Assembly (NCBI GenBank): GCA_963719225.1 | Contig: CAVRAY010000001.1 | Coordinates: forward strand, 416,001 to 480,000 | DNA from: Thermoanaerobaculia bacterium | GTDB taxonomy: Bacteria > Acidobacteriota > Thermoanaerobaculia > UBA5066 | Direction: 5' to 3' | Length of the DNA stretch: 64,000 nt | Shown: one piece after another, positions 42,254 through 64,000 of the stretch | Layout of the letters: the number at the start of each line of letters is the position of its first letter | How positions within the stretch are numbered: position 1 is the first letter of the stretch | Position numbers and translations under genes: made by a program | Notes under the pieces: generated by a model | What the model saw: the letters and a program-made list of their open reading frames with translations, nothing else | The model's database searches: none | Told to the model about the DNA's origin: nothing

Positions 42254-43729
42254 ATGCGGTGGGCCTTCGCCGCCGCCCTCGTCGCGGCGGCTCCCCTCCT
42301 CGCCGCCGAGTTCCACGTTTCGCCCTCCGGGACTCCTGCGGGCGACGGCTCGGCGCGGCGACCGTGGAACCTCGCGACGGCTTTCGCGTCCCCGCCGACC
42401 GTCCGGCCGGGCGACGTGATCTGGCTGCACGGAGGCACTTATCGCGGGCGGTTTCAGAGCGTTCTTCGGGGGACCGCGCAGGCTCCGATCGTCGTGCGGG
42501 GCTTTCCCGGAGAGCGGGCGACGCTCGACGGCGGCTCGGGCCCGATGGCCACGATTCTCTATGTCGGCGGCGGCTTCACCTGGTACCAGGGCTTCGAGAT
42601 CACGGACTCGGACCCGAAGCGCGCGTCCACGGAAAGCGGGTCGGAGCCGGCGGACGTCCGCCGGTCGAGCTGCATCGGCGTCACGCAGGACGGGCCTCAC
42701 GAGGGAATCCGCCTCATCAACCTCCTGCTGCACGACGGGGCGAACGGAATCGGCGCATTCAAGGACGCGCGCAATCTCGAGATCTACGGAAACCTCGTCT
42801 ACAACAACGGCTGGGACGGGCCGGACCGCGGTCACGGACACGGGATCTACGCGCAGAACGAGACGGGGACGATGCGGATCGAGGACAACGTCGTCTTCGA
42901 CCAGTTCGGGGCGGGCATCCACGTCTACGGATCGGAGGCCGCGACCCTCGACAACTTCTGGATCGTGGGGAACGTGGTTTTCGGCAACGGCGTTCCGAGC
43001 CGCCACGGCTTCTCACGGAACCTGCTCCTGGGCGGTGGCCGCGTCGCGAGGAATGCACGCGTCGAATCAAACATCTTCTACCTCCCGCCGTCCGGCGGCC
43101 GCGAGACGGGCGGCGGGGCGAACCTCGGCTACCACGCCGGTCTCGAAGGAGCTGTCGTGCGCGACAACTGGTTCGCGAACGGCGACGGCGGGATCTCCCT
43201 TTACCTCGTCCGCGCTCACGGCGTCGAGATGACCGGGAACCGGTTCGTGCAACCGGTCTCGGGCTTCGCCGAAACCGCTTTTCCCAGGAATCGGTATTAC
43301 CGCGAGAAAGAGAGGCCGACGGGGACGTACCTCGTCGTTCGTCCGAACCGGTACGAGAAAGGGCGCGGGCACGTCGTCGTCCTCAACTGGGACCACAAGC
43401 CGTCGGTCGATGCGAAGCTCGGATCGCTCCTTCTGCCGGGAACTCCTTTCGAGGTCCGGAACGCGCAGGATTTTTTCGGAAAGCCGGTCGCGTCGGGAGT
43501 CTTCGACGGCTCTCCGGTCCGTCTTCCGATGACAGGGCTGGCCGCCGTTCCTCCGATCGGATCGACGAGAGCCGTCGCCTCGACGGGCCCGGAGTTCGCC
43601 GTGTTCGTCGTGCTGCCGAGAGTGGAGGCAAAAGAGGAGTCCAAAGCGAAGGCCCCGCCTCCCTCTCACCCGATCACGCCGCGCCCTCCGGCCAGTCGCA
43701 CGTCACGACGCGCGACGGCCGCGCCGTGA
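42254..43729 (+). CDS. Secreted beta-helix protein (paralog 4)
   Basis: MRWAFAAALVAAAPLLAA-EFHVSPSG and the same core motifs (DRGHGHGIY, EVRNAQDFFG, GPEFAVF). Confidence 0.8.
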   Translation: MRWAFAAALVAAAPLLAAEFHVSPSGTPAGDGSARRPWNLATAFASPPTVRPGDVIWLHGGTYRGRFQSVLRGTAQAPIVVRGFPGERATLDGGSGPMATILYVGGGFTWYQGFEITDSDPKRASTESGSEPADVRRSSCIGVTQDGPHEGIRLINLLLHDGANGIGAFKDARNLEIYGNLVYNNGWDGPDRGHGHGIYAQNETGTMRIEDNVVFDQFGAGIHVYGSEAATLDNFWIVGNVVFGNGVPSRHGFSRNLLLGGGRVARNARVESNIFYLPPSGGRETGGGANLGYHAGLEGAVVRDNWFANGDGGISLYLVRAHGVEMTGNRFVQPVSGFAETAFPRNRYYREKERPTGTYLVVRPNRYEKGRGHVVVLNWDHKPSVDAKLGSLLLPGTPFEVRNAQDFFGKPVASGVFDGSPVRLPMTGLAAVPPIGSTRAVASTGPEFAVFVVLPRVEAKEESKAKAPPPSHPITPRPPASRTSRRATAAP

Positions 43730-44410
43730 CGACCGCGCCCGCGTAGCCGGCTGCCGGCGCGAGATCGCGCAGGTACCAGTGCGCCCCCTCGGTCGATCCC
43801 TCGACCTCCTCTCGCGGGTCGCCGGACTCGGTGGTCGTCGAGAAGGCTTCGAGAGGCGCGGAAAGGCCCGCGCCGTGAGCTTTCAGGAAGGCCTCCTTGC
43901 GCGTCCAGATCCGGAAGAAGGTCTCGACTCGAACGGCGGCCTTCGCCGCGTGAACTGCCGCGATTTCGGAAGGCGCGAAGAAGCGCCGGGCGAGCTCCGC
44001 GATCTCGACGCCATCCCGGACCAGCTCCACGTCGACGCCGACCGGACAGACGGCAAACGCGAGGAGGATGACGCCTCCGGAGTGGGCCACGTTGAAGTCG
44101 AGCGCGGGATCGGCAGACCCGCGCGCGAGAGCCGGCTTCCCGTGCGGCCCCGTCGTGAAACGCAGGGCCGCGGGCGTCGAGCCGACGTACCGCGCGAGGA
44201 GCTTCCGGAGAGCCGTGCGCGAGACGAGAGAACGGGTCCGATCCTCCGGGCGATGAAAACGCCCCGCGCGGGCGCGCTCCTCCCCCGAGAGGACGCCGGC
44301 GTCCGCCGGGCCGCCCTCGGGGCCCAGGAGCACCCGAAAGACGCGAACCTCTCCGGGAACGAGCTGTGGCGTCAGGCGGCGTCTCTCGAGGGAAGCGATC
44401 CACGTGTCAT
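43674..44410 (-). CDS. Sfp-type 4'-phosphopantetheinyl transferase (start uncertain: ATG 44410 with a one-base frameshift near 44375, or a CTG start)
   Basis: LSGEERARA.RF, GKP, FNVAHS, VGVDVE, FFRIWTRKEAFLKA.GAGL. Confidence 0.85.
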
Positions 44411-45390
44411 CGGGGCGCGCGACCCAGGACTTTCCCGAGGAGCGCCGCGGGCCGCGCGACACGCTCGACCCCCCCACGCAGGAGGTCGTTCTTGCTCTGC
44501 GGGTGCCGGCGGGCGCGGGAGGAGACGAAGGCGCGCTTGAGGCCGTCCCTCCAGGCCGAACGTCCCGGAGGCGTTGGCGAAAAGCCGAGGGACCTCAGGT
44601 AGTGATTCACCTGATAGACGGGCGCCTCGCGGTCCCAGACGCGGAGGCACGAGAGGATGCTGAAGGAGACCGAGTACTCGTCGCCGTTTCGCACCCAGTG
44701 CGGCGCACGCGGCGGCTGGTGAACGCCGAGGCCGGGTCGCAGGTGGTAGACGTCGGCACGCGGCTGAGCCTCATCGCGATACCGTGCCGAGCTGAGGTCG
44801 CCGAGGTAATACTGCTCGATCTCCTCGTCGGTGAGCTCGGCGCGATCGAAGATGTTGTACGTCTTCTCGCCGTGGATCTGCATGAGGAACGTGGATTCGT
44901 GGTCGAAATGGTACGGCGTGATCGAGTGTGGAGACGCGATGAAGATATACGCGTCCGGCCAGGACACGTCGCGTTCGACGTCGAGGCCCGCGAGCTCTCC
45001 GAGGTCGCGATAGCCCTGGTCCATCAGCTCCTTGTACTCGGGATCGAGGAAGACGTTCTTCAGCATGAGCCAGGCGCCGGACTCGGGGAGCTCCCGGATC
45101 GCCTTGACGAGCGACATGGGCTTGCCGGGCATGTCCGTCCAGCCGCCTCCGACGGAGGTTTGCCCGGACTTCATCGTCACGAGGCCCTTGCCTGTTCCCC
45201 AGAGCTTCATCGCGAGCTCGGCGATGCGGGGGAGCTCGAACAGGGGATGCTCCCCGAGCGTGTGCCGGTACTCGAACGACTTCCTGTTGAACCGCTCGCG
45301 GAAGAGACCGGGCTCGCCTTCGAAGACCCGCGACGGACCGGCCGGCGCGGAGGAAGAAGAGGCAGGCGGAACGGGTTCGGCAGCGGACAT
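44407..45390 (-). CDS. JmjC/cupin-like Fe(II)/2-oxoglutarate-type oxygenase
   Basis: TPYHFDHE..FLMQIHGEK and PHWVRNG give an HxD...H triad. GGAGG RBS; directly follows the terminal NRPS gene. Confidence 0.75.
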   Translation of the reverse strand: MSAAEPVPPASSSSAPAGPSRVFEGEPGLFRERFNRKSFEYRHTLGEHPLFELPRIAELAMKLWGTGKGLVTMKSGQTSVGGGWTDMPGKPMSLVKAIRELPESGAWLMLKNVFLDPEYKELMDQGYRDLGELAGLDVERDVSWPDAYIFIASPHSITPYHFDHESTFLMQIHGEKTYNIFDRAELTDEEIEQYYLGDLSSARYRDEAQPRADVYHLRPGLGVHQPPRAPHWVRNGDEYSVSFSILSCLRVWDREAPVYQVNHYLRSLGFSPTPPGRSAWRDGLKRAFVSSRARRHPQSKNDLLRGGVERVARPAALLGKVLGRAPR

Positions 45391-45391
45391 G

Positions 45392-47920
45392 TCACCTCCC
45401 GCCCGGCGGGACGGCCCGGCCGGCTTTTCGATGCGCGGCTTCGAGGCAGCGCGCGAGCTGCTGCGCGAGGGCGCTCACACGCGGCTCGTAGACGATGGCG
45501 CCGTGGTGCCCCGGGACCTCGTAGACCTCGAGCCCGCCCTCGGCGATCCGCGTCCAGCCGAGCTCCGGGTCCGGCTGGATGTGCGCCCCCTGCTTGGAAG
45601 CGCGGAAGAGCGTGATCCGCGACGGATACGGCCGGGGCACGTAGCGCTTCGTCGCCTCCCGGGTCTCGCCCTCGATCTTCCTGAGGACCTTCGGGAGCGG
45701 CTGCGCCACATGCTCCGTGAACTCCCGGAGTCGGCCGAGGCGCTTCTTCGTGTTCTTGATCGCGTTGTTCTTGACGCGGATCGACTTCGTGACGATGTAG
45801 CGGAGCTTCTCGCGGGGTCCGTCCGCGACGAGAAAGTTGCCGACGTGGAGATCGACGCGCTCGACGAGCTTCTTGACCTTGAGGCGCGTCCCGGTCATGC
45901 CCGGAACGTAGACCGGGTAGTCGGGCCCCCACGTGTCGAAGAGCGCGAGGACGCCGACCGTCTGGTTCTGTTCGACGAGCTGCCGGGCCATCTCGAACGC
46001 GATCATGCCGCCGAAGGACGTCCCGCCGAGGTAATAGGGGCCCTCGGGCTGGAACTCGCAGATCTCCTCGATGTAGTCGCGCGCCATCTCCTCGAGCGTC
46101 TCGTGGGGCGCCTGCTTGCCGTCGAGCCCTCGCGCCTGCAGTCCGTAAACGGGCTGGTCGTTTCCGAGATGGCGTGCGAGATCGAGGTACGTGAGGACGT
46201 TGCCGCCGGCGGCATGCACGCAGTAGAAGGGCGGTCTCGTCCCGTCCGGCTGGATCGGCACGAGCGACGACCACGACGCCGACCACGTCTTGTCGCGCAG
46301 CAGGGCCGCGAGCTCGGCGATCGTCGGCGCCTGGACGAGAGTCGCGAGCGGAAGCTCCTTGCCGAACTGCTTGCCGACCTCCGTCATGATCCCGACGGCC
46401 ATGAGCGAGTGGCCGCCGAGCTCGAAGTAATTGTCGCGGATGCCGATGGGCGACGTGCCGAAGACCTTCTCCCAGATCGCGACGAGCTTCCGCTCGGCGT
46501 CGTCCGTCGGCGCGACGAGCGCGGGGAGGACCGCGGGGATCGGCCGCTCTCCCGAAACCGGCGCCTTCCGTGCGGACGTCTCGATCTTCACGTCCGCGAG
46601 CAGGGCGTCGGGCGTCGTCGCGATCGCGCGAAGGAGCGTCTCGTAGTCCTTCAGGAAACGCGACATCGTCGAGGAGTCGAAGAGATCCGCGTTGTACTCG
46701 AGCTGCAGGCGCTGGCCTTCCGCGCGCTCGACGACGGACTGCATGAGCTCGAAGGCCGAGCCCGGGCTGACGGAGCGGCGCGGCGTCAGCGTGAGGCCTC
46801 CCGGCAGGGCGACGGGCTGCATGAAGGCGCTCTGATAGATGAACATCACGCGCGGCGCATAGGGCACCTTCCTGAGCGTCGTCTCCTGCCACTCGATGAG
46901 CTTCTCGAACGGAAGCTCGGCGAAGCTGAACGCGGCGAGCGCGAGCTCGCGCACCCTCACGACGAGGCCGCGGAGGGTCGGCGATCCGGTCAGGTCGGCG
47001 CGCAGGAGGAGCGGGTTTGCGAACGGACCGATCAACCCCTCCGTCTCGACGTGCTGGCGGTTCGCGGCAGGCGAGCTCACGAGGACGTCGTCCTGTCCGG
47101 ACCAGCGCGAAAGCAACGCGACGAAGGCCGCGAAAAAGAGCATGAACGGCGTCGCGTCCACCTGACGCCCGAAGGCCTTGAGGGCGTCGGAGAGCGGCTT
47201 GTCGAGGAGGAGCGATTCGATGACGCCCGCGGAGGCGATCCCGGGACGCCGCGGCCGGTCGGTCGGAAGCTCGAGCGGCGGAAGGGTGCCGGCGAGCTTT
47301 TCGCGCCAGTAATCGAAGGCCTCCTCGAACTTCTCTCCGCTCAGCCATTCCTGCTGCCAGCTCGCGAAGTCCGCGAACTGGATCGTGAGCTCTTTCAGCC
47401 TGGACGCGTCGCCTTCGACCGCCGCGCGATAGAGCTCCCCGAGCTCGCGGACGAGGATGCCGTTCGACCAGCCGTCGCACACGATGTGGTGCATCGTGAC
47501 GAGGAGGACGTGGTCGATCGCGGCGCGCGTGACGAGCGTCGCCCTCAGGAGAGGCCCGCACGCGAGAGTGAACGGCCGGCGCGCCTCCTCGAGGACGAGC
47601 TCCTCGGTGCCCAGGTCGCGCTCGGCGGCGGGCAGGGAGCTCACGTCGACGACGCGGAGACTCACCGTCGCCTGCGGTTTGACGATCTGCATGACGTCGG
47701 GGCCCACCCGGTCGAAGCTCGCGCGAAGGATCTCGTGGCGGGCCGCGAGGTCGGAGAGCGCACGTTCGAGGGCGGGGACCTCGAGCGGCCCCTCGAGGCG
47801 AAACGCGAGCGGCATGTTGAGAGCGGGATTCCCGGGGACGAGCTGGTCGAGCTGCCAGTAGCGCTTCTGCGCGAGAGAGGTCGGCAGCAGGAAGACGTCG
47901 TCGTTGAGGAGCGCGCTCAT
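45392..47920 (-). CDS. NRPS termination protein C-T-TE (no adenylation domain)
   Basis: C domain with HHIVCDGWS; carrier DNYFELGGHSL; TE with HAAGG and GTSFGG. True start is ATG 47920, not 50269. Confidence 0.9.
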   Translation of the reverse strand: MSALLNDDVFLLPTSLAQKRYWQLDQLVPGNPALNMPLAFRLEGPLEVPALERALSDLAARHEILRASFDRVGPDVMQIVKPQATVSLRVVDVSSLPAAERDLGTEELVLEEARRPFTLACGPLLRATLVTRAAIDHVLLVTMHHIVCDGWSNGILVRELGELYRAAVEGDASRLKELTIQFADFASWQQEWLSGEKFEEAFDYWREKLAGTLPPLELPTDRPRRPGIASAGVIESLLLDKPLSDALKAFGRQVDATPFMLFFAAFVALLSRWSGQDDVLVSSPAANRQHVETEGLIGPFANPLLLRADLTGSPTLRGLVVRVRELALAAFSFAELPFEKLIEWQETTLRKVPYAPRVMFIYQSAFMQPVALPGGLTLTPRRSVSPGSAFELMQSVVERAEGQRLQLEYNADLFDSSTMSRFLKDYETLLRAIATTPDALLADVKIETSARKAPVSGERPIPAVLPALVAPTDDAERKLVAIWEKVFGTSPIGIRDNYFELGGHSLMAVGIMTEVGKQFGKELPLATLVQAPTIAELAALLRDKTWSASWSSLVPIQPDGTRPPFYCVHAAGGNVLTYLDLARHLGNDQPVYGLQARGLDGKQAPHETLEEMARDYIEEICEFQPEGPYYLGGTSFGGMIAFEMARQLVEQNQTVGVLALFDTWGPDYPVYVPGMTGTRLKVKKLVERVDLHVGNFLVADGPREKLRYIVTKSIRVKNNAIKNTKKRLGRLREFTEHVAQPLPKVLRKIEGETREATKRYVPRPYPSRITLFRASKQGAHIQPDPELGWTRIAEGGLEVYEVPGHHGAIVYEPRVSALAQQLARCLEAAHRKAGRAVPPGGR

Positions 47921-47934
47921 GGCGATCGTCGAGA

Positions 47935-50900
47935 TTATGTCCCGGCGCGCGCCGGCGGAGTGCCGGCGTCCGCTGGCCGCCTCGTGATCTGCCGTGGAAT
48001 CGCCTTGAGAGTCGGGCCATGAGCCGCGTGCTTCGCCGGCGAACCCGCGGCCTTCGCGAGAGCCGCCACGGTGCGAAGCTGGAACACCTGGCGCGGGGAG
48101 ACCTGCACGCCCGCCTGATGCGCGCGCGTCGTGATTTGAAAGACGAGGAGGGAGTCGGCCCCGAGGTCGAACACGCTGTCCTCGACGCTGACCTTCTCGA
48201 GGCGCAGGACTTCGCCGAAGATGCCCGCGAGCGTCCGCTCGGCGTCGGTCCGGGGAGCGACGAACCGGCCGGTGCCGGACGCCTCGGGATCGGGAGCGGG
48301 CAGGGCGCGGCGATCGAGCTTGCCGTTGGGCGTGCGGGGGAGCGCGGGGAGCGCCACGAAGGCGACGGGGACCATGTAGTCCGGCACGAGGTCTTCGAGA
48401 TGAGCCCGCAGCTTCGGTGTGAGGTCGCGCAGCGCGAAACCGCGGTTCGGAGCGTTCGCGTGCGGCGGGGCGGCGCCCGCTCCGGGAGAAGGCGCCGCGG
48501 GCAACGGGCTCCGCCGGTCGTGTCCGGAGGCAAGCGCGAAAACGTCGAAACGGGATCCGTCTCCCGAGGACGGCCAGAGCGCCTCGACGTCGCGGGACGA
48601 GTCCGCGAGCGCGAAAACGGCTTCGGGATCCACGCCGGGATCGCCCGCTGCGAGCGCATCCTTCAGGGCGGATGCCGTCGCCTCCGCCGGAGCGGCCTCG
48701 AGCAGCCGTGCGAATCGGACGGGGCCGGCGACGCGCGCGTTCGGAACTCCCGTCACGAGGACGGGGCCCCTCGAGACGTCGAGGACGGCCGCGAGAGCCT
48801 CGAGCGTACGCACCTCGGAGTCCCAGTGAAGCGTTCGCGGAGGCGCCGCGGCCGTGGGAACGGGTCCGGCGTGCAGGGTCACGTCGTAGTGAAACTGCGT
48901 CGTCTCGTTCCAGAGGCGGCCGCGCCTCACGCGGAACGTCGCACGAGAGAGCCGCGGGTCTTTCCCGACGAGTGCCAGGAAGAACGCGGGGTCGACGACC
49001 AGCTCGTTCTCCAGCGAGATGCGCTCCCGCACGCGCCTCTTCAGCTCGTGGGCGCTCGCCCCCTCCTCGGTGCGCGCGAGCTGCGCGGACGCGTGGAACG
49101 TCTCGAGGAGGGCGAAGCTCTGGACGTCGCCCACGAAGACGACGCCGCCGTCGGCGACCGCCCGCGCGGCGCCGTCGAGGACGCGGGCGAGATAGTCCGC
49201 GTCCGGAAAGTACTGCGCGACGGAGTTGATGACGACGGTGTCGAAGGTCCCGGCCGGGACGCCGTCGAGGTCGTCGGCGGCCCGGCAGAGGAGTCGCACG
49301 CGGCTCCTCGTCGACGCGTCCTCCGACTCGAGCCGGGCCTCGAGCGCCGCGATCGCGGTCTCGGAGAAGTCGAGGCCCCAGTACGCGTCGCAGGCGGGCG
49401 CGAGGCGCGTGAGGATCTGGCCCGTGCCGCAGCCGATCTCGAGGACGCGTTTCGGCGCGAGCTCGCGGATCCTCGTGACGCTCGCGTCGATCCACTCTTC
49501 GACTTCTTCCTTCGCGGTCGAACCCGTCCAACCGGTGATGACGGCGTCGATCGCGTCGAGGGACGTCTTCTTCGTTCCGTCTCCCTCGATCGCGGTCTTG
49601 AAGAGCACCTCCCACTGGGCGTGCCACTGCGCGGTCGCGGCGGAGGATCCGTCGCCGGCGGTCTCGCCGGCCTTCGACACGATGTAGGAGACGAGGCGCT
49701 TCTGCCCCGGCACGTCCTCCCTCACGACCGTGGCGCTCTCGCCGACGTCCGGGTGCCGGGCGAGAGCGGCATCGATCTCGCCGAGCTCGATCCGGAAGCC
49801 GCGCACCTTCACCTGATGATCGGTGCGGCCGAGGAACTCGAGCGTGTCGTCCGCGCGCATGCGCACGAGATCTCCCGTCCGGTAGAGGCGCGCTCGCGGC
49901 ACGCTGGAAAACGGATCCGGCACGAAGCGCTCGCGGGTCAGGTCCTCTCGCTCCCAGTAGCCGTCGGCGACGCCGGCGCCGCCGATGACGAGCTCGCCGG
50001 GAACGCCGACCGGAACAGGGTGCAGCCGCGCGTCGACGACGTAGAACTGTGTGTTCGCGATCGGACGGCCCAGCGGGATCGCGCCGGGACCTGGAGCGAC
50101 CCGGGCGACGCTCGACCAGATCGTCGTCTCGGTCGGGCCGTACATGTTCCAGAGCTCCGGTTCGCGCGCGAGGAGGTCGTTCGCGAGGTCCCGGGGCAGC
50201 GCCTCTCCTCCGCAGAGCATCTTGAGGGGCTTCCCTCCGGACCAGCCCGCCATGAGGAGGAGCCTCCACGTCGCGGGCGTCGCCTGCAGCACCGTCGCGT
50301 CCTTTCGCCCCAGGAGCGCGAGAAGGCGCGTGCCGTCCGAGGCATCCTCGCGCGTCGCGAGGATCACGCGCCCGCCGACGATGAGCGGCAGATAGAGCTC
50401 GAGGCCCGCGATGTCGAACGAGAGGGTCGTGACGGCCACGATCCCGTCCCGGGCCGTAAAGCCGGGCTCCTTCGCCATCGTCCTCAGGAAGTTCGCGACG
50501 GCGCCGTGGGGGACGGCGACGCCCTTGGGGCGCCCCGTCGAGCCCGACGTGAACATCACGTAGGCGAGGTCGGAGGGCGCGACGTCGGCGGGCCCCGCTT
50601 CAGAGGCCGCGTCGATGAGCGCCGCGTCGGTGTCGAGGCGGACGACGGCCGCGCCGTGCCGGGGCAGGTCCTCTTCGAGTGAGCTCTGGGTGACGAGCAG
50701 CTTCGGGTGCGCATCCTCGAGGATGAGCGCGAGACGTTCCTTCGGGAACGCCGGGTCCAGCGGGACGTAGGCCGCGCCCGTCCTGAGGATCCCGAGGAGC
50801 GCCACGACCATGTCGGCCGACCGCTCGACCGAGAGACCCACGAGAGAGCCGGGCCCGGCTCCCCGCGTCGCGAGGAATCCCGCGAGCCGCGCGGCTCGGG

Positions 50901-56900: not shown

Positions 56901-56925
56901 CGACGATCGCGACGGCGTCAGCCAC
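47935..56925 (-). CDS. Hybrid PKS-NRPS: KS-AT-ACP-aminotransferase-C-A(Gly)-N-methyltransferase-T
   Basis: KS TACSTS/EAHGT/NVGH; AT GHSVG and HAFHS (malonyl type); ACP GFDSL; class III aminotransferase FDEVICGFR and YGKVIGGG; C HHLVCDG; A code DILQLGMIWK; MT VLEIGCGTG and INSVAQYFP; T LGADSL. Confidence 0.93.
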   Translation of the reverse strand: MADAVAIVGLAGRFPGARSAEELWRNVLGGVESIRPLADDELRAAGIPEETIRDPRYVKARAILDDADLFDAPFFGVIPREAELMDPQHRVFLEVCHEALEDAALDPATFPGLVGVYAGSSVNTYLASQVAPDRAFLRDVVEQFQVGAFPVLFGNDGHFLTTRLSYKLNLRGPSVDVQTACSTSLVAVSMACRSLLHYECDAALAGGVSISFPQARGYLYLEGGMVSQDGHCRTFDAKADGTVFGSGAGVVVLKRLSDALENGDRILAVIRGFAVNNDGSQRVAYTAPSVDGQAEVIALAQAMAGVDPRAVGYVEAHGTATPLGDPIEVSGLTKAFRAGTKDRGFCALGSVKPNVGHLDAAAGVTGLIKTVFALRDRVLPPTLHFTTPNPHIDFAASPFFVNARGAPWTSDAPRLAGVSAFGVGGTNAHVVLEEAPPTAPSSGSRTQHVFVLSARTDDALEAATRNLAAHLEAHPESSAGDVARTLQSGRRAFDRRRAFTAPDLATARTALEAAGARRPPTASAVSARRHVTFLFPGQGAQTPGMASDLHATEPVFHRAFDRCAEIVRPVLGLDLREAIFTTAAGAAEALNQTRLAQPAIFSVSWALAELWAAWGVVPDAMLGHSVGELVAATRAGVLSLEDALRLVAKRGALMQEMPAGSMLAVRLSEAEIAPHIGSSLDVAAVNGPSMVVVSGATADIAALEARLARVDVAHRRLSTSHAFHSRMLDALLERLANDVRGVRLSPPRIPWVSTVTGEWITQAEATAESYWSRHAREKVRFSDALARLLAEHPSTVLLEVGPGQTLATLAKAPAARAAGAVTFASLRHPEDPGADAPHLLETFARLWASGVAVDWQGHQAEERRRLVALPTYPFERKKYWLDAGANAPRGAATAVAAKEERAATSVSAPDALPAPAPPVPVPGDRRARILGEILRTLSEQSGFPESDLSPAANFLELGFDSLVLTQVSQELQKEFGVKISFRQLLDESATPGSLAEWIDGQVVPEAPPAAPETIPPAAPAAVPLAPAPAAAPPKKKEFEAFGPYKPVAPGARSGLTERQHRALQDFTRRYTAKTKGSKRMTDETRDRFADPRVAAGFKLLWKEVVYPIVAVSSSGSRIRDVDGNEYVDMLMGFGLNMFGHSPAFVTDAVVEQLRKGVEIGPQSPDALLAASLICEFTGMERATFCNTGSEAVMTAMRLARTVTGRKKIALFSGSYHGTFDEVLVRAAKVKGQPRSLPIAPGIPEEKVENLLVLDYGTDESLRILEAEMANLAAVLVEPVQSRHPDLQPREFLHAVRRLTSAHDTALIFDEVICGFRVHPGGAQAVFGVKADLASYGKVIGGGMPIGAVAGSATYMDALDGGTWRYGDDSIPEKGVTFFAGTFVRHPIAMAACVAVLKHLKEQGPALQETLNAKTARFTSRLNGIFERAGLSTHVQRFGSVMYYKFPPEERFASLFFAHLRANGVHVLEGFPCFMTTAHTEEDLDFVLDAYEKSIAAMQEGGLFAPPPSHAAASGGEALEPVVVPLTEAQREVWLATRMGDDASCAFNESVSIRFEGPLDEARLTRAIQALVDRHDALRATFAPEGDVQRVAPHVTVEVPIMDLSSLPREERDRNLAAMVDGEGESPLDLVNGPTVRFRLVRLEPEDHVLLLTAHHLVCDGWSTNVLLSELGPLYAASGDAAALPPAAQYADYSRWEEETRRSVEGSATEAYWISQYEQPPGFLELPTEGLRPSVLTYAGATERRTVSRPLVDAVRKAGARQGCTLFATLLAAFDVLLHRLSGQDDVVVGVPAAGQSSWGREDVVGHCVNFLPVRSLLEEGSTVKDFLKATRTRVLDAYEHQNYTYGTLVRKLALPRDPSRLPLMEVQFNVEKVGDDFALPGLRVSVDPNGKKYANSDIFLNVIEGPAGLVLDCDFKTELFSRDTIHRWLGHFETLLEGIAADPEARVDELPLLSAPEKERILGACNDTAVGWPPPYTIHALIEKQAASTPDAVAVVAGEVTLTYRDLTARAARLAGFLATRGAGPGSLVGLSVERSADMVVALLGILRTGAAYVPLDPAFPKERLALILEDAHPKLLVTQSSLEEDLPRHGAAVVRLDTDAALIDAASEAGPADVAPSDLAYVMFTSGSTGRPKGVAVPHGAVANFLRTMAKEPGFTARDGIVAVTTLSFDIAGLELYLPLIVGGRVILATREDASDGTRLLALLGRKDATVLQATPATWRLLLMAGWSGGKPLKMLCGGEALPRDLANDLLAREPELWNMYGPTETTIWSSVARVAPGPGAIPLGRPIANTQFYVVDARLHPVPVGVPGELVIGGAGVADGYWEREDLTRERFVPDPFSSVPRARLYRTGDLVRMRADDTLEFLGRTDHQVKVRGFRIELGEIDAALARHPDVGESATVVREDVPGQKRLVSYIVSKAGETAGDGSSAATAQWHAQWEVLFKTAIEGDGTKKTSLDAIDAVITGWTGSTAKEEVEEWIDASVTRIRELAPKRVLEIGCGTGQILTRLAPACDAYWGLDFSETAIAALEARLESEDASTRSRVRLLCRAADDLDGVPAGTFDTVVINSVAQYFPDADYLARVLDGAARAVADGGVVFVGDVQSFALLETFHASAQLARTEEGASAHELKRRVRERISLENELVVDPAFFLALVGKDPRLSRATFRVRRGRLWNETTQFHYDVTLHAGPVPTAAAPPRTLHWDSEVRTLEALAAVLDVSRGPVLVTGVPNARVAGPVRFARLLEAAPAEATASALKDALAAGDPGVDPEAVFALADSSRDVEALWPSSGDGSRFDVFALASGHDRRSPLPAAPSPGAGAAPPHANAPNRGFALRDLTPKLRAHLEDLVPDYMVPVAFVALPALPRTPNGKLDRRALPAPDPEASGTGRFVAPRTDAERTLAGIFGEVLRLEKVSVEDSVFDLGADSLLVFQITTRAHQAGVQVSPRQVFQLRTVAALAKAAGSPAKHAAHGPTLKAIPRQITRRPADAGTPPARAGT

Positions 56926-58828
56926 GGGAGCTCCTCGACCGTTGTTCCGAAAGCGCCTCGCGCTGCTTGCGGGCCCGGTCGGACACGCGGGGAGAAGCGG
57001 TCTCGGCCCCGGCCGGCCGGTTGAGCAGGAGTCCCAGGGCTTCGATCGTGGGGTGCTCGAAGAGCGCCGTGAGGGGAAGGTCGCAGGCGAACCGGCGACA
57101 CAGCTCCTCGTGCACCACGGCTGCGAGGATCGAGCTTCCGCCGAGGTCGAAGAAGTTGTCGCGTCGGCCGACGCGCGGAAGGCGCAGCGCGGCGGCCCAG
57201 ATCGCGGAAAGCCGCCGCTCCCACTCCGAGGCGGGTGCCACGAATTCCTCGGCCAGCCGGGGACGTTCCTCGGATGGGGCGGGCAGCGCGCCGCGATCGA
57301 TCTTCCCGTTCGCGGTCAGGGGAATCGCGGAAATCCGGACGAACGCCGAAGGGAGCATGTAGTCGGGCAGGCTGCGTGCGACGTGCGCGCGGATCTCGTC
57401 GTCCAGCGCCGGCGGGTCGGCCTCCGCGACGATCCAGGCCACGAGCCGCTTCTCGCCCGCGGGGCCGTCATCGGCGAAGACGGCGGCATCCCGGATCGAG
57501 GTGTGGCGGCGGAGCACGGTCTCGACCTCGCCGAGCTCCACGCGGAACCCGCGGATCTTCACCTGACCGTCCATGCGGCCGAGGTACTCGAGATCGCCGT
57601 CCGCGGCGCGCCGTCCGAGATCCCCCGAGCGGTAGACACGCCGGCCTTCGTGGACGAGAAAACGGGCTGCCGTGAGCTCCGGCCGGTCGAGGTAGCCACG
57701 CGCCACGCCGGCGCCCGCGACGACGATCTCGCCGGCGGTGCCGGGGGGCACCTGCCGGAGGTTCTCGTCGAGGAGGAGGACGTCGAGATCGGGGATCGGC
57801 ACCCCGATCGGGCTCACGCCCGCCTTTGCGAGGTCCGCAATCAGGAGGGGCCGGTACGTGACGTGTACGGTGGTCTCGGTGATGCCGTACATGTTCACGA
57901 GGCGCGGGCTTTCGTCGCCGAAACGTTCGAACCAGGGACGCAGTCCCTCGAGGTTCAGCGCCTCACCGCCGAAGACGACGACGCGAAGCGCGAGTCGCGA
58001 CGGATGCTCGACGGCAGTGCGGGCGAGCTGCCGGAACGCGGAGGGAGTCTGGTTCAGGACCGTGACGCCTTCGCGAAGGAGGAGCGCGTGGAATTCCCGA
58101 GGCGAGCGGCTCACACCGTAGGGGACGACGACGAGCCGGCCGCCGTAAAGGAGCGCTCCCCAGATCTCCCAGACGGAGAAGTCGAACGCGGGAGAGTGGA
58201 AGAGAGTCCAGACGTCCTCCTCGGAAAAGCGGAACCAGGGTTCCGTCTCGCGGAAGAGGCGCAGAACGTTTCCGTGCGTGACGAGAGTGCCTTTCGGCAC
58301 GCCCGTCGATCCGGACGTGTAGATCACGTACGCGAGGCTTTCGGCATCGGCCGTCACGCCAAGGGCCGTCTCCACCCCTTCGTCTTCTCCAGCTTCGACG
58401 TCGAGGACCACGAGGCCCGGTGAATCGGGCAGCCGCGAGGCGAGCGCATGGCTCGTGACGACGATCCGTGTGCCGGAGTCCGAGAGCATGAAGGCGAGGC
58501 GCTCTTCGGGAACGACGGGATCGAGAGGCACGTATGCGGCGCCGGCCTTGAGGATTCCGAGGATGCCGGCGACGAGATCGAGCGAACGATCGAGGAAGAC
58601 GCCGACGAAAGCGCCCGGCTCGACACCTTTGGCGAGGAGACGGCGGGCGATGCGGTTTGCCCGCGCGTCGAGCTCGCGGTACGTCAGCGAGTCCCCCCCG
58701 CAGACGACGGCGGTGGCGTCGGGCCTCGAACGCGCGCTCCGCTCGAAGGCCGTGGCGAGCCCGGCGTCCGGCTCCGCCGACCGTCCGCCGACGTTCCGGG
58801 ATGGGTCTTCTCGCAAAGGGGTACGCAT
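56918..58828 (-). CDS. NRPS loading module A(Thr)-T
   Basis: YTSGSTG.PKG, FDFSVWEIWG, TVLNQTPSAF, NMYGITETTVH give code DFWNVGMVHK; carrier FFDLGGSSI. Confidence 0.92.
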   Translation of the reverse strand: MRTPLREDPSRNVGGRSAEPDAGLATAFERSARSRPDATAVVCGGDSLTYRELDARANRIARRLLAKGVEPGAFVGVFLDRSLDLVAGILGILKAGAAYVPLDPVVPEERLAFMLSDSGTRIVVTSHALASRLPDSPGLVVLDVEAGEDEGVETALGVTADAESLAYVIYTSGSTGVPKGTLVTHGNVLRLFRETEPWFRFSEEDVWTLFHSPAFDFSVWEIWGALLYGGRLVVVPYGVSRSPREFHALLLREGVTVLNQTPSAFRQLARTAVEHPSRLALRVVVFGGEALNLEGLRPWFERFGDESPRLVNMYGITETTVHVTYRPLLIADLAKAGVSPIGVPIPDLDVLLLDENLRQVPPGTAGEIVVAGAGVARGYLDRPELTAARFLVHEGRRVYRSGDLGRRAADGDLEYLGRMDGQVKIRGFRVELGEVETVLRRHTSIRDAAVFADDGPAGEKRLVAWIVAEADPPALDDEIRAHVARSLPDYMLPSAFVRISAIPLTANGKIDRGALPAPSEERPRLAEEFVAPASEWERRLSAIWAAALRLPRVGRRDNFFDLGGSSILAAVVHEELCRRFACDLPLTALFEHPTIEALGLLLNRPAGAETASPRVSDRARKQREALSEQRSRSSRG

Positions 58829-58854: not shown

Positions 58855-61110
58855 TCAGACGGCCTTGCCGGCAGGCGGCTCGACTTCTTGGGCCGGGACG
58901 GGCTGGGCAGCGGGGTAATAGGCGCCGCCGTACCGCTCGCGGTCCGAGGGATTGTGTTTTTCGTCGAGCGCGTTGATCAGGACGCCGAGCACCTTCACGT
59001 TGCTGTTCCTGAGCTCGGTCAAGGCGTGCAAAACCTGTTCGCGCGGTGTCTGACCCCCGCGGACGGTGAGGATCACGCCGTTCGTGAGATAGCCGAGGAC
59101 GATTGCGTCCGCGACGGCGAGGACCGGCGGCGCGTCGAGCACGACATAGTCGTAGCGGGCGACGGCGCCGTCGAGGAACCGGCGCATCTTGTCCGAGGCG
59201 AGGAGCCCGGAGGGATTCGGAGAGGGGGGGCCCGCGGGAAGGAGGCTCAGGCCGGGAACGGCGGTCTTCTGGACGGCGTGCACAGCATCGACGCGCCCGG
59301 CGAGGACCGAGACGAGTCCCTCGGCATTGGACACCTGGAAGACCTCGTGGAGACGGGAGCGATGCAGGTCCGCGTCGACGAGGAGGACGCTCTTCCCGAG
59401 CTGGGAGAGGACGACCGCGAGATTCGTCGCCGTCGTCGTCTTGCCCTCGAGGGGAACCGCGGACGTGACCACGAAGGAGCGGAGGAGATCCGCGCTCGAC
59501 AGGAGGAGCGACGTGCGGAAGGCCCGGTAGGCCTCGGAAACGGCCGAGCGCGCGACCTCGTGTGGGAGAAGCTCGATCGCCGGAAGGTCGGGTTTCGAGC
59601 CGGGGCGCCCCTTCCCCCAGCTTGCCGCCATGGACGCGGGAGAGGGCGCAGGCCCCGAGAGACTCTTCGCAGCCTTTTGCGTCGCCGGGATCACTCCGAG
59701 CACCGGGAGGCGGAGGTACTCGGCGACCTGCTCGGGGGTGCGGAGGCTGCGGTCGAGAGTTTCGAGCCCGAACGCGAACGCGAGCCCGAGCATCACCCCG
59801 CAGACGAGGCCGAGAACGCCGTACCTCCGGTAGGAAGGTCCCCAGCGCTGCCGGGGAGGTAGCGCGCTCTCCACGATGCGGATATTGGAGACGCGCTCTC
59901 CTTGCAGGCGCGCCGCGACCTGCGTCTCCGCGTCGCGCTTGAGAAGATTGTCGAGAAGTGCCCTCTGCGTCTCCGTCTCCACCCGGAGGTTGTTGTAGTC
60001 CATCGCGTCCGCGTTCTGAGCGATGGCGTCGGATCGCTGGGACTGCAGGGCGTCCCGCAGGTTCTGCTCGCGCCGAAGAGCGGCGAGGTAGTCGGCGCGG
60101 GCCGCGTCCCGGGACTTCTTGACCGTCTCCTGGGTGACGGCATCGAGGCTCTGGCGGCCCCGCTCGATCTGCGCCTTGAGCTGCTGCATCGCCGGCCAGT
60201 CGGGCTTGAAGAGGTTCAGCTTCTCGGCGTATTCACGCTCCAGCTTGGCCTGCTCGGCGCGCAGCTGGACGACGAGGCCGTTCGAAAGGGAATCCGCGAG
60301 CGCGTCCGCGTTTTCGTTCTTGAGCTCGTGGTCCTTGGCCTCCTTCGCCATGCGGTCCGCCGTGGCCGCGGCGAGGTCGCGGTTCAAGGCGTCGAGACGG
60401 GCGAGCGCGCTGTTGGACTGCGGGTCCCCGCTCAGGATGTCCTTCTTGCGTCCGAACGCGAGCAACCGCTGCTCCCGCGTGGCGAGGTTCCGCTTGGCCT
60501 CCTCGATCTGGGTCGCGAGGAAGCGGGAAGCCTGGCCGAGGAGGCGGAACTTCGTCTCGAGCTTCCAGTCGATGTACGACTCCGCGACCGCGTTCGCGAT
60601 CTCCGCGGCGTCCTTGGGCGACGTCGCGACGCAGGCCAGCTCGACGAGGGTCGTCCCCTGGATCTGTCGCGCTTCGAGCATGCCGCGCATGCGCCGGGCT
60701 CCGTCCGCAATCCGGGCCTTCTCCGGGGCGTCCGTGGTCTCCACGGCTGGCGGCTTTTCGGTACTGCCGGCCTGGAGGCGCCGCACGGCCCGTTCGAGGA
60801 CCTCACGATTCCGGATCAGGCGGGTCTCGGTCTCGAGAAAGAGCGCGTCGACGCCCGTTTCGCGCTGGGCGCCGAACCCCAGATCGAGGGGATTTCCCTG
60901 CTCCTTCTCGAGGTTGATGAGCGCCACCGCGCGGTAGGTCGGGGCTTCGCGGAAGGCGAGGGCCGCGGCGACGGCGAGCGAACCGAGGACGCAAGAAATG
61001 ATCAACCACCGCCGCCGCGAGACGACGCGGGTGTAATCGGACAGCCGGAACTCCCGCGGGGAGGGGGAGTCACCCGCCGTGACGTCGTCGTTCCCGAGAT
61101 TTTTGTCCGT
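58855..61110 (-). CDS. wzc: Wzc-like polysaccharide co-polymerase / BY-kinase (apparent ACG start)
   Basis: EFRLSDY.RV..RRRWLI and TM1, coiled coil, TM2, SEAYRAFRTSL, Walker A PLEGKTT, VDADL, VLDAPP, short Tyr tail (RYGGAYY). Confidence 0.88.
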   Translation of the reverse strand, partial: TDKNLGNDDVTAGDSPSPREFRLSDYTRVVSRRRWLIISCVLGSLAVAAALAFREAPTYRAVALINLEKEQGNPLDLGFGAQRETGVDALFLETETRLIRNREVLERAVRRLQAGSTEKPPAVETTDAPEKARIADGARRMRGMLEARQIQGTTLVELACVATSPKDAAEIANAVAESYIDWKLETKFRLLGQASRFLATQIEEAKRNLATREQRLLAFGRKKDILSGDPQSNSALARLDALNRDLAAATADRMAKEAKDHELKNENADALADSLSNGLVVQLRAEQAKLEREYAEKLNLFKPDWPAMQQLKAQIERGRQSLDAVTQETVKKSRDAARADYLAALRREQNLRDALQSQRSDAIAQNADAMDYNNLRVETETQRALLDNLLKRDAETQVAARLQGERVSNIRIVESALPPRQRWGPSYRRYGVLGLVCGVMLGLAFAFGLETLDRSLRTPEQVAEYLRLPVLGVIPATQKAAKSLSGPAPSPASMAASWGKGRPGSKPDLPAIELLPHEVARSAVSEAYRAFRTSLLLSSADLLRSFVVTSAVPLEGKTTTATNLAVVLSQLGKSVLLVDADLHRSRLHEVFQVSNAEGLVSVLAGRVDAVHAVQKTAVPGLSLLPAGPPSPNPSGLLASDKMRRFLDGAVARYDYVVLDAPPVLAVADAIVLGYLTNGVILTVRGGQTPREQVLHALTELRNSNVKVLGVLINALDEKHNPSDRERYGGAYYPAAQPVPAQEVEPPAGKAV

Positions 61111-61317: not shown

Positions 61318-62658
61318 ATGGAAACCAGTTCGTTCCGCTCGGCGCACGAAGCCGGACTCGCCGGGGCGATCCGGGACCATTCGGCCCTCGTGGGGATCGT
61401 CGGGCTCGGCTACGTCGGCCTTCCGATGGCGCTCGCGTTCGCCGAGAAAGGCTTCTCCATCCTGGGCTTCGACGTCGACCGGGCGAAGGTCGACGCGCTC
61501 GCCCGCGGCCAGAGCTACATCAAGCACCTCGACGGCGGGAGGCTGGCCGCGGCCGTCGCGACCGGGCGCTTTGCGGCGAGCTCGGATTTCTCGAGGCTCA
61601 GGGAGCCGGATGCGATCCTGATTTGTGTCCCGACGCCGCTCACTCCGCAACGCGAACCGGACATGACGTTCGTCGTGTCGACGGCGGAAAAAATCGCGAA
61701 GACCCTCCGGCCCGGCCAGCTCGTCATCCTGGAGTCCAGCACGTACCCCGGCACGACCGACGAGCTCCTGCGGGGCCTTCTCGAGACGCCCGCTCTTCGG
61801 GCCGGTCGGGACTTCTTCCTGGCCTATTCGCCCGAGCGCGAGGATCCCGGCAACAAGCAGTTCGGGACGACGTCGATCCCGAAAGTCGTCGGCGGAGTCG
61901 ATGAGGTGTCGGGCGACCTCGCGCAGCTCCTGTACGACCAGGTCATCGCCAGGACGGTCCGGGTCTCGACGGCGCGGACGGCCGAGGCGACGAAGCTCGT
62001 CGAGAACATCTTCCGCGCGGTGAACATCGCGCTCGTGAACGAGCTCAAGATGGTCTTCGACCGGATGGGCATCGACGTCTGGGAGGTGCTGGACGCGGCC
62101 GCGACGAAACCGTTCGGCTTCATGCGCTTCAACCCCGGTCCCGGCTGGGGCGGCCATTGCATCCCGCTCGACCCGTTCTATCTTTCTTGGAAGGCCCGGG
62201 AATACGGCGTCGCCCCGCGATTCATCGAGCTCGCGGGGGAGGTGAACGTCGAGATGCCCGCCTACGTCGTCGGGAAGGTGCAGGCGGCGCTCAACGACCG
62301 GGGGAAGTCGGTCAAGGGCAGCCGGATCCTCGTGCTCGGGCTCGCCTACAAGAAGGACATCGACGACCCGCGCGAGAGTCCTGCGTTCGACGTGATCGAA
62401 AGGCTCCTCCACCTCAAGGCGGAAATCTCCTACCACGATCCCCACGTGCCGCGCGCGCCCCGGATGCGGACGTGGCCGGACCTTCCAACGCTCACGTCCG
62501 TTCCGCTCACGGAGCAGGTGCTCGCGGCGTCGGACGCCGTCGTCCTCGTGACGGACCACACGGCCGTCGACTACGCCCTGGTCGCCCGCGTGGCGCCGCT
62601 CGTCGTGGACACGCGCGGCGTGTATCGCGATCCTCTCCCGAACGTGGTCAAGGCGTGA
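61318..62658 (+). CDS. UDP-N-acetylhexosamine 6-dehydrogenase (WbpA/WecC family)
   Basis: GLGYVGLP, ICVPTP, LESSTYPGTT, SPEREDPGN, KLVENIFRAVNIA, GGHCIPLDPFYL, LAYKKDIDD.RESP. Confidence 0.9.
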   Translation: METSSFRSAHEAGLAGAIRDHSALVGIVGLGYVGLPMALAFAEKGFSILGFDVDRAKVDALARGQSYIKHLDGGRLAAAVATGRFAASSDFSRLREPDAILICVPTPLTPQREPDMTFVVSTAEKIAKTLRPGQLVILESSTYPGTTDELLRGLLETPALRAGRDFFLAYSPEREDPGNKQFGTTSIPKVVGGVDEVSGDLAQLLYDQVIARTVRVSTARTAEATKLVENIFRAVNIALVNELKMVFDRMGIDVWEVLDAAATKPFGFMRFNPGPGWGGHCIPLDPFYLSWKAREYGVAPRFIELAGEVNVEMPAYVVGKVQAALNDRGKSVKGSRILVLGLAYKKDIDDPRESPAFDVIERLLHLKAEISYHDPHVPRAPRMRTWPDLPTLTSVPLTEQVLAASDAVVLVTDHTAVDYALVARVAPLVVDTRGVYRDPLPNVVKA

Positions 62659-63674
62659 GCGTGGCCTCTCCGACGGAAAGCGCCTTCGAAGGGCGGCTCG
62701 CGCTCGTGACGGGGGGAGCCGGCTTCATCGGGTCTCATCTCGTGGACGCGCTCCTCGCGCGAGGGTCGCGTGTCCGCGTCCTCGACGACCTCTCGAACGG
62801 CTCCCTCGGCAACCTCACCCACGCGGGTTCGCGGATCGATTTCGTCGAGGGGGACATCCGCGACGCCGAGGTCTGCCGCCGCTGCTGCGACGGCGCGACG
62901 TTCGTCTTTCACGAGGCGGCGCGCGGTTCGGTGCCGCGCTCGATGGCCGATCCGGCCGCCACGATCGCCATCAACGTGGCGGGCACGGCGAACGTCTTCG
63001 CGGCGGCCCGGGACGCGACGGTGGAGCGCATCGTCTATGCCTCGTCGTCGAGCGTTTACGGCGACTCCCCGACTCTTCCGAAGCGCGAGGGCGAGGAAGG
63101 CAAGCCGCTGTCTCCGTACGCGGTCTCGAAGGCGATGGACGAGGAGCTCGCGGATGTTTACGCGCGGTGCTTTGGGCTGCTCCTCGTCGGGCTGAGGTAC
63201 TTCAACGTGTACGGGCCGCGGCAGGATCCGGAGGGCGCCTACGCGGCGGTGATTCCGCGGTTCTTCAAGGCGTGTCTCGCGGGCGAGGCGCCGATCGTCT
63301 ACGGGGACGGGGAGCAGTCGCGCGATTTCACGTACGTCTCCGACGCGGTGGCGGCGAACCTCGCCGCCGCGGTCGCTCCCGCCGGCTCGTGCGGCCGCGC
63401 GTACAACGTCGCCGGAGGCCGAAGGACCACGGTGAACGAGCTCGCCGATCTCGTCCGCGGCGCCGCGGGCCGCGGACTCCCGTCCGAACACCGTCCCGTG
63501 CGGCCTGGAGATATCCCGCACTCGCTCGCGGACCTCACCCGGACGCGGGCGGACCTGGGCTACGCTCCCGCGGTGGAGCTTCGGGAGGGCCTCGGACTTT
63601 CCGTCGCGCACTACAAGGCGGTCCTCGGAGCTTCGACGCGCCCGGTCTGGGGCCGCCCGGGAGTGCCGGGGTGA
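62655..63674 (+). CDS. NAD-dependent UDP-HexNAc(A) 4-epimerase (WbpP/TviC-like extended SDR)
   Basis: GTGA overlap. TGGAGFIG, GSVPRS, ASSSSVYGD, SPYAVSK, YFNVYGPRQDP.GAYAAVIPRF. Confidence 0.88.
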   Translation: MSVASPTESAFEGRLALVTGGAGFIGSHLVDALLARGSRVRVLDDLSNGSLGNLTHAGSRIDFVEGDIRDAEVCRRCCDGATFVFHEAARGSVPRSMADPAATIAINVAGTANVFAAARDATVERIVYASSSSVYGDSPTLPKREGEEGKPLSPYAVSKAMDEELADVYARCFGLLLVGLRYFNVYGPRQDPEGAYAAVIPRFFKACLAGEAPIVYGDGEQSRDFTYVSDAVAANLAAAVAPAGSCGRAYNVAGGRRTTVNELADLVRGAAGRGLPSEHRPVRPGDIPHSLADLTRTRADLGYAPAVELREGLGLSVAHYKAVLGASTRPVWGRPGVPG

Positions 63675-64000
63675 CCGAAACGACGGCCGGGCCGGCCGTC
63701 GTCGTGATCCGGCCGAGCACGGGCTGGGTCGCGCTGAACCTCGCCGAGCTCTGGGCGTACCGCGAGCTCCTCTTCTTCCTCGTCTGGCGCGACGTGAAGG
63801 TCCGCTACAAGCAGACGGCGCTCGGTGCGGCATGGGCGATCCTGCAGCCTCTCCTGAGTATGGTCGTGTTCACGATCTTCTTCGGGCGGCTCGCCGGCGT
63901 GGGCTCCGACGGCCTGCCCTATCCGATCTTCTCCTACGTCGGCCTCCTGCCGTGGACGCTTTTCTCGCAGGGCGTCAATCAGGCGTCCACCAGCATCGTG
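63671..64000 (+). CDS. wzm: Polysaccharide ABC transporter permease (3' partial; absent from ORF track)
   Basis: Manual translation from GTG 63671: ..IRPSTGW..LNLAELWAYRELLFFLVWRDVKVRYKQTALGAAWAILQPL...F..FFGRLA....GLPYPIF. Confidence 0.85.
   Translation, partial: MTETTAGPAVVVIRPSTGWVALNLAELWAYRELLFFLVWRDVKVRYKQTALGAAWAILQPLLSMVVFTIFFGRLAGVGSDGLPYPIFSYVGLLPWTLFSQGVNQASTSIV

Follow-up and report, generated by a model that had tools for sequence, protein, structure and literature searches.

McyE of the microcystin pathway, MycA of the mycosubtilin pathway and a lipopeptide synthetase from a Ralstonia megaplasmid share one string of domains: ketosynthase (KS), acyltransferase (AT), acyl carrier protein (ACP), class III aminotransferase and condensation (C) domain. 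McyE and MycA reportedly extend acyl or polyketide chains within long lipopeptide lines. The same string is encoded in a 64,000-nucleotide stretch of DNA (hereafter the window) from a Thermoanaerobaculia bacterium of the phylum Acidobacteriota, corresponding to C1:416001-480000 of a 4.75-Mb genome in two contigs (G000). Unlike the three described systems, the assembly line found here is predicted to start from a free amino acid, has two or three modules, and ends in a protein with C, thiolation (T) and thioesterase (TE) domains that lacks an adenylation (A) domain. We put at about 0.5 the probability that the product of this line covalently decorates a Wza/Wzc-exported polysaccharide that probably contains uronic acid.

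The line is encoded within a run of six minus-strand genes, separated by gaps of 26, -8, 14 and 1 bp and then by an overlap:

58855..61005, minus strand: wzc, polysaccharide co-polymerase and tyrosine autokinase (Pfam Wzz, GNVR and AAA_31; TIGR01007 above cut-off)
56918..58828, minus strand: stand-alone A-T didomain, the predicted starter module (Pfam AMP-binding and PP-binding; code DFWNVGMVHK)
47935..56925, minus strand: hybrid polyketide synthase-nonribosomal peptide synthetase (PKS-NRPS) of 2996 aa, KS-AT(HAFH)-ACP-class III aminotransferase-C-A(DILQLGMIWK)-methyltransferase (MT)-T (Pfam and motifs)
45392..47920, minus strand: C-T-TE terminal module of 842 aa without an A domain (Pfam C, PP and TE; HHxxxDG and GxSxG intact)
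44407..45390, minus strand: JmjC-type Fe(II)/2-oxoglutarate (2OG) oxygenase (weak Pfam JmjC_2/Cupin_8 matches below cut-off; alignment, structure model and Foldseek)
43674..44477, minus strand: Sfp-type phosphopantetheinyl transferase (PPTase), its 5' end possibly frameshifted (Pfam ACPS and AASDHPPT_N)

Pfam places the domains of the PKS-NRPS in the order KS, AT, PP, Aminotran_3, C, AMP-binding, MT, PP. The active-site motifs are present throughout (KS C/H/H, AT GHS and HAFH, HHxxxDG in both C domains, TE GxSxG), and the part from the KS to the C domain behind the class III aminotransferase forms, on one chain with intact catalytic motifs, a module of the McyE/MycA type. The A-domain codes, DFWNVGMVHK in the A-T didomain and DILQLGMIW(K) in the PKS-NRPS, were taken from the core motifs; we take DFWNVGMVHK to be a Thr signature, DILQLGMIWK a Gly signature, HAFH the mark of a malonyl AT, and the embedded MT an N-methyltransferase. 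The aminotransferase domain has its best NCBIfam matches, below cut-off, among HemL-type enzymes. This is the only NRPS of the genome (no other C domain at E<1e-15), and it sits in the only wzc/wza/wzb locus. An earlier note on this DNA had described a tight same-strand run of six genes with these domains, and the coordinates, gaps and Pfam domains agree with it: Pfam finds every domain named, and the codes and HAFH are in the sequence. The divergent genes that it listed for a UDP-HexNAc dehydrogenase, an epimerase and Wzm are likewise real. Its statement that no exporter is present holds for the six-gene run and fails for the locus, whose divergent side carries wzm/wzt, wza, wzb and a gene for an outer-membrane barrel. 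A promoter and terminator scan was uninformative (0 promoter-like sites; 12 terminator-like sites vs 8.1 +/- 2.6 in shuffles).

The association with polysaccharide genes was assessed through homologs of the aminotransferase domain, which was matched in 17 of 400 other Acidobacteriota genomes (18 loci), in 5 of 401 genomes in the class of an alphaproteobacterial metagenome-assembled genome (MAG), the centre genome included, and in at least 12 of 400 in the class of a gammaproteobacterial MAG. A tree of 52 such domains (quick search, midpoint root, no bootstrap, SH-aLRT only) splits with an SH-aLRT of 99 into two groups: 17 rows, mostly from large NRPS clusters or from lines that are not compact, and 35 rows, the source genome among them. 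Loci were called polysaccharide-linked when tblastn found at least two of eight polysaccharide families in the fetched stretch. By this rule 18/35 loci are linked in the clade of the source genome vs 0/17 in the sister clade. Restricting the comparison to evenly drawn GTDB rows gives 9/20 vs 0/15. The same rule is passed by 6/115 other 40-kb windows of the source genome. Linkage also follows the terminal module, being found in 14/19 loci with an A-less end vs 4/24 others. The enrichment is thus clear in raw counts over three bacterial classes but short of statistical proof, and the association is not an obligatory one. The Ralstonia synthetase, which aligns with the PKS-NRPS at 42% over 79% of the latter, has its domain in the sister clade and shows no polysaccharide link.

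Polysaccharide loci could also be hot spots for incoming DNA, in which case the adjacency would be a by-product and the role of the line unrelated. The patchy presence of the line, found in 4/29 genomes of the genus, fits such a scenario, as does a phylogeny-corrected test that is not significant; the aminotransferase lines of the sister clade, 0/17 in polysaccharide loci, do not. The host polysaccharide loci vary in export type (Wzm/Wzt or Wzx) and in gene order, a diversity that points to repeated re-association. We consider the hot-spot explanation improbable.

Within the genus, G019 and G006 carry the entire locus in the same gene order, at ~57-91% identity. The oxygenase was counted in 4/29 genomes, the aminotransferase in 3/29 and wzc in 6/29; G006 was missed in the aminotransferase count owing to frameshifts, hence the 4/29 given above for the line. 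In G008, an 88% complete genome, the line occurs without beta-helix genes; no wzc was found, and the contig breaks off within the PKS gene. G022 has the dehydrogenase, a divergent wzc and then directly the convergent beta-helix genes, which is the layout of the source genome minus five genes. From this comparison, the assembly line reads as an optional cassette between wzc and the beta-helix genes.

Beyond the genus, the line belongs to a family that spans phyla. The compact layout is seen in 12 of the 18 loci from Acidobacteriota, counting G253, in which the KS part and the A-T didomain were mis-called by the gene finder. The internal A domain has a Gly-type code in 11/12 of these, and the starter code reads as Thr in seven, Val-like in two and partial in one, with two unread. 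An embedded methyltransferase is found among the compact loci only in the source genus, G219 and G132, and in the latter two an Acyl_transf_3 gene, encoding a candidate transfer enzyme, directly follows the C-T-TE gene. Polysaccharide genes lie within ~20 kb in 8/12 compact loci (7/8 confirmed by Pfam; G393 and G416 by blast, G416 without a Pfam scan). In G322, wza and wzc directly precede the line, independently of the source genome. Eight plasmid homologs were opened among the 50 matches listed, comprising seven family members and Ralstonia as an outgroup. Six of the seven (Rhizobium, Sinorhizobium, Variovorax VAI-C, Rhodobacter, Aliiroseovarius and Jannaschia) lie in loci with wza, wzc, flippase or glycosyltransferase genes; the Variovorax RA8 plasmid member lies outside such loci. 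Starter codes differ among the plasmid homologs. A metagenome scan gave ~7 close matches among 80, mostly short, five of which entered the tree.

Homologs also clarify where the line may begin. Fusion of the A-T didomain ahead of the KS is seen in Rhodobacter, Jannaschia, Aliiroseovarius, Variovorax and G454. A stand-alone Thr A-T beside a complete C-A(Gly)-T-TE protein is found in G244 and G416. Because the didomain is fused to the KS in some homologs and kept where the last module has its own Gly A domain, it is best read as a starter module, and Thr as the starter, proposed in the earlier note, is supported. An acyl starter, as in beta-amino fatty acid lipopeptides, finds no counterpart in the six-gene run: the gene upstream encodes an A-T didomain whose code points to the amino acid Thr, and no acyl ligase is present.

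The terminal module appears to be a degraded one. Between the complete terminal protein of G244 and the C-T-TE protein of G401, identity is 66% in the C domain and 59% in T-TE, with ~520 residues of A domain missing, and an A domain in G322 is without its core motifs. These alignments indicate that C-T-TE derives from C-A(Gly)-T-TE through loss of the A domain in a related lineage. The 120 best homologs of the C-T-TE protein comprise 74 C-C-T-TE, 29 C-T-TE and 2 C-T-T-TE proteins (105/120 A-less). The C domain before the T domain keeps HHxxxDG in 26/29 C-T-TE and 72/74 C-C-T-TE proteins, so the last C domain is probably active; it could add a trans-loaded second Gly or sarcosine (Sar), condense the chain with an amine from elsewhere, for instance an amino sugar, or link monomers to one another. 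With the A domain lost and the C motif intact, the line probably either makes a product that extends past a single sarcosine or finishes with a transfer step. The 3,4-diamino-5-hydroxyhexanoyl-sarcosine put forward in the earlier note is therefore plausible in its first half and uncertain at its end, where an A-less Gly module with an intact C motif had been overlooked. As a separate observation, A-less C-C-T-TE proteins of ~1300 aa form a large family (Bradyrhizobium, Bryobacteraceae, Candidatus Cybelea; P0016-P0113, L033-L036, L045); many carry a Cys-type thioesterase, with Cys in place of Ser in 26/36 readable C-C-T-TE proteins.

A different order of events would have the Thr A-T supply the A-less terminal module in trans, by analogy with SyrB1/SyrC in the syringomycin pathway, with the oxygenase acting on tethered Thr and the KS starting from an acyl group, to give a beta-amino-acyl-Sar-Thr lipodipeptide that could serve as an anchor or surfactant. 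The combination of A-T(Thr), an Fe(II)/2OG enzyme and C-T-TE does resemble syringomycin. The PRISM rule, in an excerpt of PMC4787774, takes a stand-alone A-T didomain to work in trans if there is also a C-T module without an A domain, and would send the A-T here to the A-less module. Against this order stand the fusion of A-T before the KS in five homologs, the co-occurrence in G244 and G416 of a Thr A-T with a complete Gly terminal module, and the match of the A-less module to a Gly module at the identities given above. Moreover, the six-gene run has no gene called as a fatty acyl ligase or as a SyrC-like shuttle, and the oxygenase has HxD rather than HxA/G, which we take to be the halogenase motif. 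We give this order little chance.

On the reading that we prefer, covalent decoration of the polysaccharide, the A-T would load Thr and pass it to the KS, and one malonyl extension would give 4-amino-5-hydroxy-3-oxohexanoyl-ACP. The aminotransferase would then convert C3 to an amine, giving a 3,4-diamino-5-hydroxyhexanoyl chain, or a 3-amino-4-oxo isomer if it is HemL-like; the HemL-type matches make a 1,2-amino shift a possible alternative to the diamine, though such a match may not discriminate. C-A-MT-T would add N-methylglycine, and the A-less C-T-TE would either add a second Gly or Sar supplied in trans or pass the chain on, with the TE releasing or transferring it. Attachment would take place in the cytoplasm on the lipid-linked repeat. 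One route could be the acylation of a free amino sugar, in keeping with two DegT enzymes and with the failure to find a hexapeptide acetyltransferase in the locus with one query. A second could be the amidation of a uronate carboxyl through a PaaK/CapK-like ligase, in the manner of VpsH, which uses glycine. The oxygenase may hydroxylate a tethered intermediate or the glycan. More broadly, and tentatively, since we hold this to be possible at somewhat below even odds, the line may represent an undescribed, widespread class of NRPS-PKS serving surface-polymer chemistry. Such lines would turn a variable amino acid into a diamino acid joined to Gly or Sar, and the A-less C-T-TE would graft it onto the lipid-linked repeat or oligomerise it to a cationic polyamide that binds or cross-links an anionic capsule; variable starter codes would vary the surface.

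Several observations weigh against covalent decoration. The co-occurrence of assembly line and polysaccharide genes claimed in the earlier note is upheld by the 18/35 vs 0/17 contrast and the 6/115 background and breaks down in 17/35 clade members, which have no polysaccharide genes in the fetched stretch, some of them on cut contigs. Among these is G919, the nearest outside relative of the aminotransferase of the source genome. On long contigs of G346, G217 and G253, which form one lineage, the Thr/Gly line, the oxygenase and the PPTase are kept with no polysaccharide genes (G346 Pfam-scanned). The sister-clade negatives come from tblastn, with queries partly taken from family loci and windows partly filled by long NRPS genes, and an independent-pairs test, from which nine loci <25 kb were left out, had 3 pairs only and no power (p ~1). 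Related loci do not count as independent cases, and 8 changes are needed to place the linked and unlinked states on the tree. Within the genus, G017, G022 and G003 have wzc and no assembly line, so the polymer system can do without the line; wzc is first in the run, as the earlier note had it, yet the line looks like a cassette behind an older wzc rather than an operon headed by it. No transfer enzyme besides the C and TE domains of the line itself is common to all loci. Lastly, a 4-amine left free on the ACP thioester could cyclise to a lactam, and no domain that would protect it is present in the line.

Some of these points would suit a line that makes a free or cell-associated small molecule, such as a signal, chelator or matrix additive, that is co-regulated with the exopolysaccharide and unattached to it, its TE hydrolysing or cyclising the chain. 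The Ser TE is intact, the line is optional in the genus, and the compact loci without polysaccharide neighbours are those of the G346, G217 and G253 lineage and of G118, as far as its contig, which begins 2 kb upstream, reaches. Regulators and curli genes beside the line in Rhizobium, and NusG or STAS/SpoIIE genes in G322 and G142, would fit a shared biofilm programme. A free product is harder to square with a six-gene run that contains no small-molecule exporter, resistance or regulator gene, and with repeated siting among flippase, glycosyltransferase, wza and wzc genes in three bacterial classes, far above background. Overall, we regard a free product as less likely than decoration, though as its main rival.

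The oxygenase encoded downstream of the terminal module has an HxD...H triad, with H161, D163, K176 and H231 invariant in 19/19 aligned sequences. An alignment-based model (pLDDT 87) has YxbC, YcfD, NO66 and FIH as its top Foldseek matches (YxbC: E 1.7e-12, TM ~0.5), while a PDB sequence search with the oxygenase returned 0 matches. Modeled as a double-stranded beta-helix fold and bearing the triad, the protein is assigned to the JmjC Fe(II)/2OG enzymes. It accompanies 8/12 compact Acidobacteriota loci. As a marker for the family it was rejected: of 11 non-self oxygenase loci, only L025 has a KS-aminotransferase line, and L023 has an A domain. Oxygenases of this family also occur in polysaccharide loci of Blastocatellia and others with no NRPS in the fetched stretch (L018, L019, L020, L021, L022, L024), beside Acetyltransf_6 GNAT tandems, glycosyltransferases, wza or wzc, and they are possibly a polysaccharide-tailoring family of their own. 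Since the family is present without the line, its substrate need not be an NRPS product; the cupin of the earlier note is in the run, and its proposed oxidation of the NRPS product is accordingly one option.

The remainder of the polysaccharide locus surrounds the run on both sides:

61318..62658, plus strand: UDP-glucose/GDP-mannose dehydrogenase family protein (uronic-acid precursor), first gene of the divergent polysaccharide operon (Pfam)
62655..63674, plus strand: NAD-dependent sugar epimerase/dehydratase (Pfam)
63671..64000, plus strand: wzm, ABC-2 permease, extending beyond the end of the window (Pfam and sequence)
36226..43729, plus strand: four right-handed beta-helix proteins with signal peptides, convergent on the assembly line (Pfam Beta_helix 3/4; the fourth by blast similarity)
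34983..36059, minus strand: glycosyltransferase-like protein at the far edge of the locus (Pfam Glyco_trans_1_2; syntenic in G019 and G006)

The divergent operon runs ~23 kb beyond the window, to C1:502746. It encodes Wzt, glycosyltransferases, a deacetylase, a Wzy_C protein, a PaaK/CapK-like AMP-binding ligase and a GNAT protein, followed by two DegT aminotransferases, a sugar phosphotransferase, a CapD-like dehydratase, an outer-membrane barrel, Wza and Wzb; the wzt, glycosyltransferase and CapD names come from the sequence and from blastp to Pfam-labelled homologs. The gene set of a Wza/Wzb/Wzc (group 1-like) system is thus present (wza, wzb, wzc, an initiating phosphoglycosyl transferase, glycosyltransferases and a Wzy-like protein), with the wza, wzb and sugar-transferase matches below NCBIfam cut-offs and Wzy_C above the Pfam cut-off. 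Two flippase queries found no Wzx in C1:440001-510000, where wzm/wzt are found instead; no family-wide search was made. The export layout is mixed, combining Wzm/Wzt, a Wzy_C protein and Wza/Wzb/Wzc, and wzm/wzt also occur in G219, G132, G022 and G017. The four beta-helix proteins are paralogous, one with BACON domains, and co-travel with wzc in G019, G006, G022, G017 and G003; they may act as lyases or epimerases of the polysaccharide or bind it. At the border of the locus (32197-34845, minus strand) lies the gene for an 882-aa protein that combines Vgb-lyase-like propeller repeats with Ig/PKD domains; paralogs of this protein adjoin wzc in G017 and G003.

Two genes of the run have unusual 5' ends. 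For wzc, the GTG at 61143 matches the start in the relatives G019 and G006 and is followed by an in-frame TGA at codon 8 (61120-61143, minus strand); the true start probably lies upstream, within 61080-61143, at an uncertain position. For the PPTase, the ATG at 44410 that matches relatives is out of frame with the gene body (44403-44412, minus strand), and a second PPTase is encoded on contig C2. Because related MAGs carry frameshifts too, both 5' ends may be assembly errors.

Further genes recur beside family members. Those without a TE (G1170, G589, G905, G1196; L069, L083, L093, L101) are flanked by homologs of exosortase A-associated hydrolases 1 and 2 (TIGR03100/03101, below cut-off), a hint that this pair has a release or transfer role; an alpha/beta hydrolase gene is also found right beside the line in family loci. 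TIGR04325-family methyltransferases recur beside proteobacterial members without an embedded N-methyltransferase (L027, L028, L031, L032, L079, L107, L184) and might supply methylation in trans. A conserved protein of ~325 aa directly follows the terminal module in G244, G401 and G416 (L043:10934-11899, L048:6990-7976, L055:11133-12116), with no Pfam or NCBIfam match in the 2/3 scanned. In G346, an MbnB/TglH/ChrH-family enzyme and its DUF2063 partner lie a few kb from the line (L050:10582-12362), as a separate cluster resembling those for ribosomally synthesized and post-translationally modified peptides, syntenic in G217 and G253.

Genome-mining pipelines class lines of this kind as antibiotic or lipopeptide clusters. 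If their products do decorate polysaccharides, orphan clusters that recur in soil Acidobacteriota, rhizobia, Variovorax and marine Rhodobacterales would gain a structural role, and modular assembly lines would become polysaccharide-tailoring machines. The A-less C-T-TE and C-C-T-TE ends are also of interest in themselves, as an unexplained way of terminating a line. Harmless carriers are in culture, which puts the question within direct experimental reach.

The individual domains of the line are known, and so are PKS and carrier systems in capsule loci. Carrier chemistry occurs in surface-polysaccharide loci with RkpA (Sinorhizobium K antigen), WcbR (Burkholderia capsule), Dlt D-alanylation and the exosortase A-associated ligase, ACP and hydrolase genes. 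These are either a reducing PKS for a lipid or systems with a single A domain and a carrier, and none is a Thr/Gly hybrid with an aminotransferase. In syringomycin biosynthesis, SyrB1, SyrB2 and SyrC act with SyrE, whose last module lacks an A domain; the present run likewise has a stand-alone Thr A-T, an Fe(II)/2OG enzyme and a terminal C-T-TE without an A domain. It differs in that no SyrC-like shuttle or SyrB2-like halogenase was called in the run, the JmjC enzyme carries HxD, and homolog fusions put the A-T before the KS.

Two further systems join amino acid chemistry to saccharides. An excerpt of PMC13463779 describes VpsH, a PaaK/CapK-like protein that amidates a Vibrio polysaccharide with glycine on uronate, a decoration dispensable for polymer assembly, from a locus with Wza/Wzc-type export and a uronic-acid dehydrogenase. 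The locus described here has a PaaK-like AMP-binding protein, likened to VpsH by family rather than by direct comparison; as presented in that excerpt, VpsH adds plain glycine without NRPS or PKS, unlike the present line. The carenaemin cluster of Collimonas arenae, in an excerpt of PMC8313283, is a hybrid PKS-NRPS that likewise includes an aminotransferase domain and needs saccharide genes for its activity. It was considered as the same system and set aside as a different cluster: its line is larger, with Gln-like, Ser and Leu-like codes and an epimerase, the product is a diffusible antifungal, and the O-antigen genes are at a separate locus. The excerpts of PMC4062626 and PMC3910554 only list Phaeobacter PKS/NRPS locus tags, and no description of this aminotransferase-line family was found in the open-access literature. 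Set beside these systems, the line is a recurrent and apparently undescribed variant of the aminotransferase-bearing hybrid lines, with a habit of residing in polysaccharide loci and a function that we infer from sequence.

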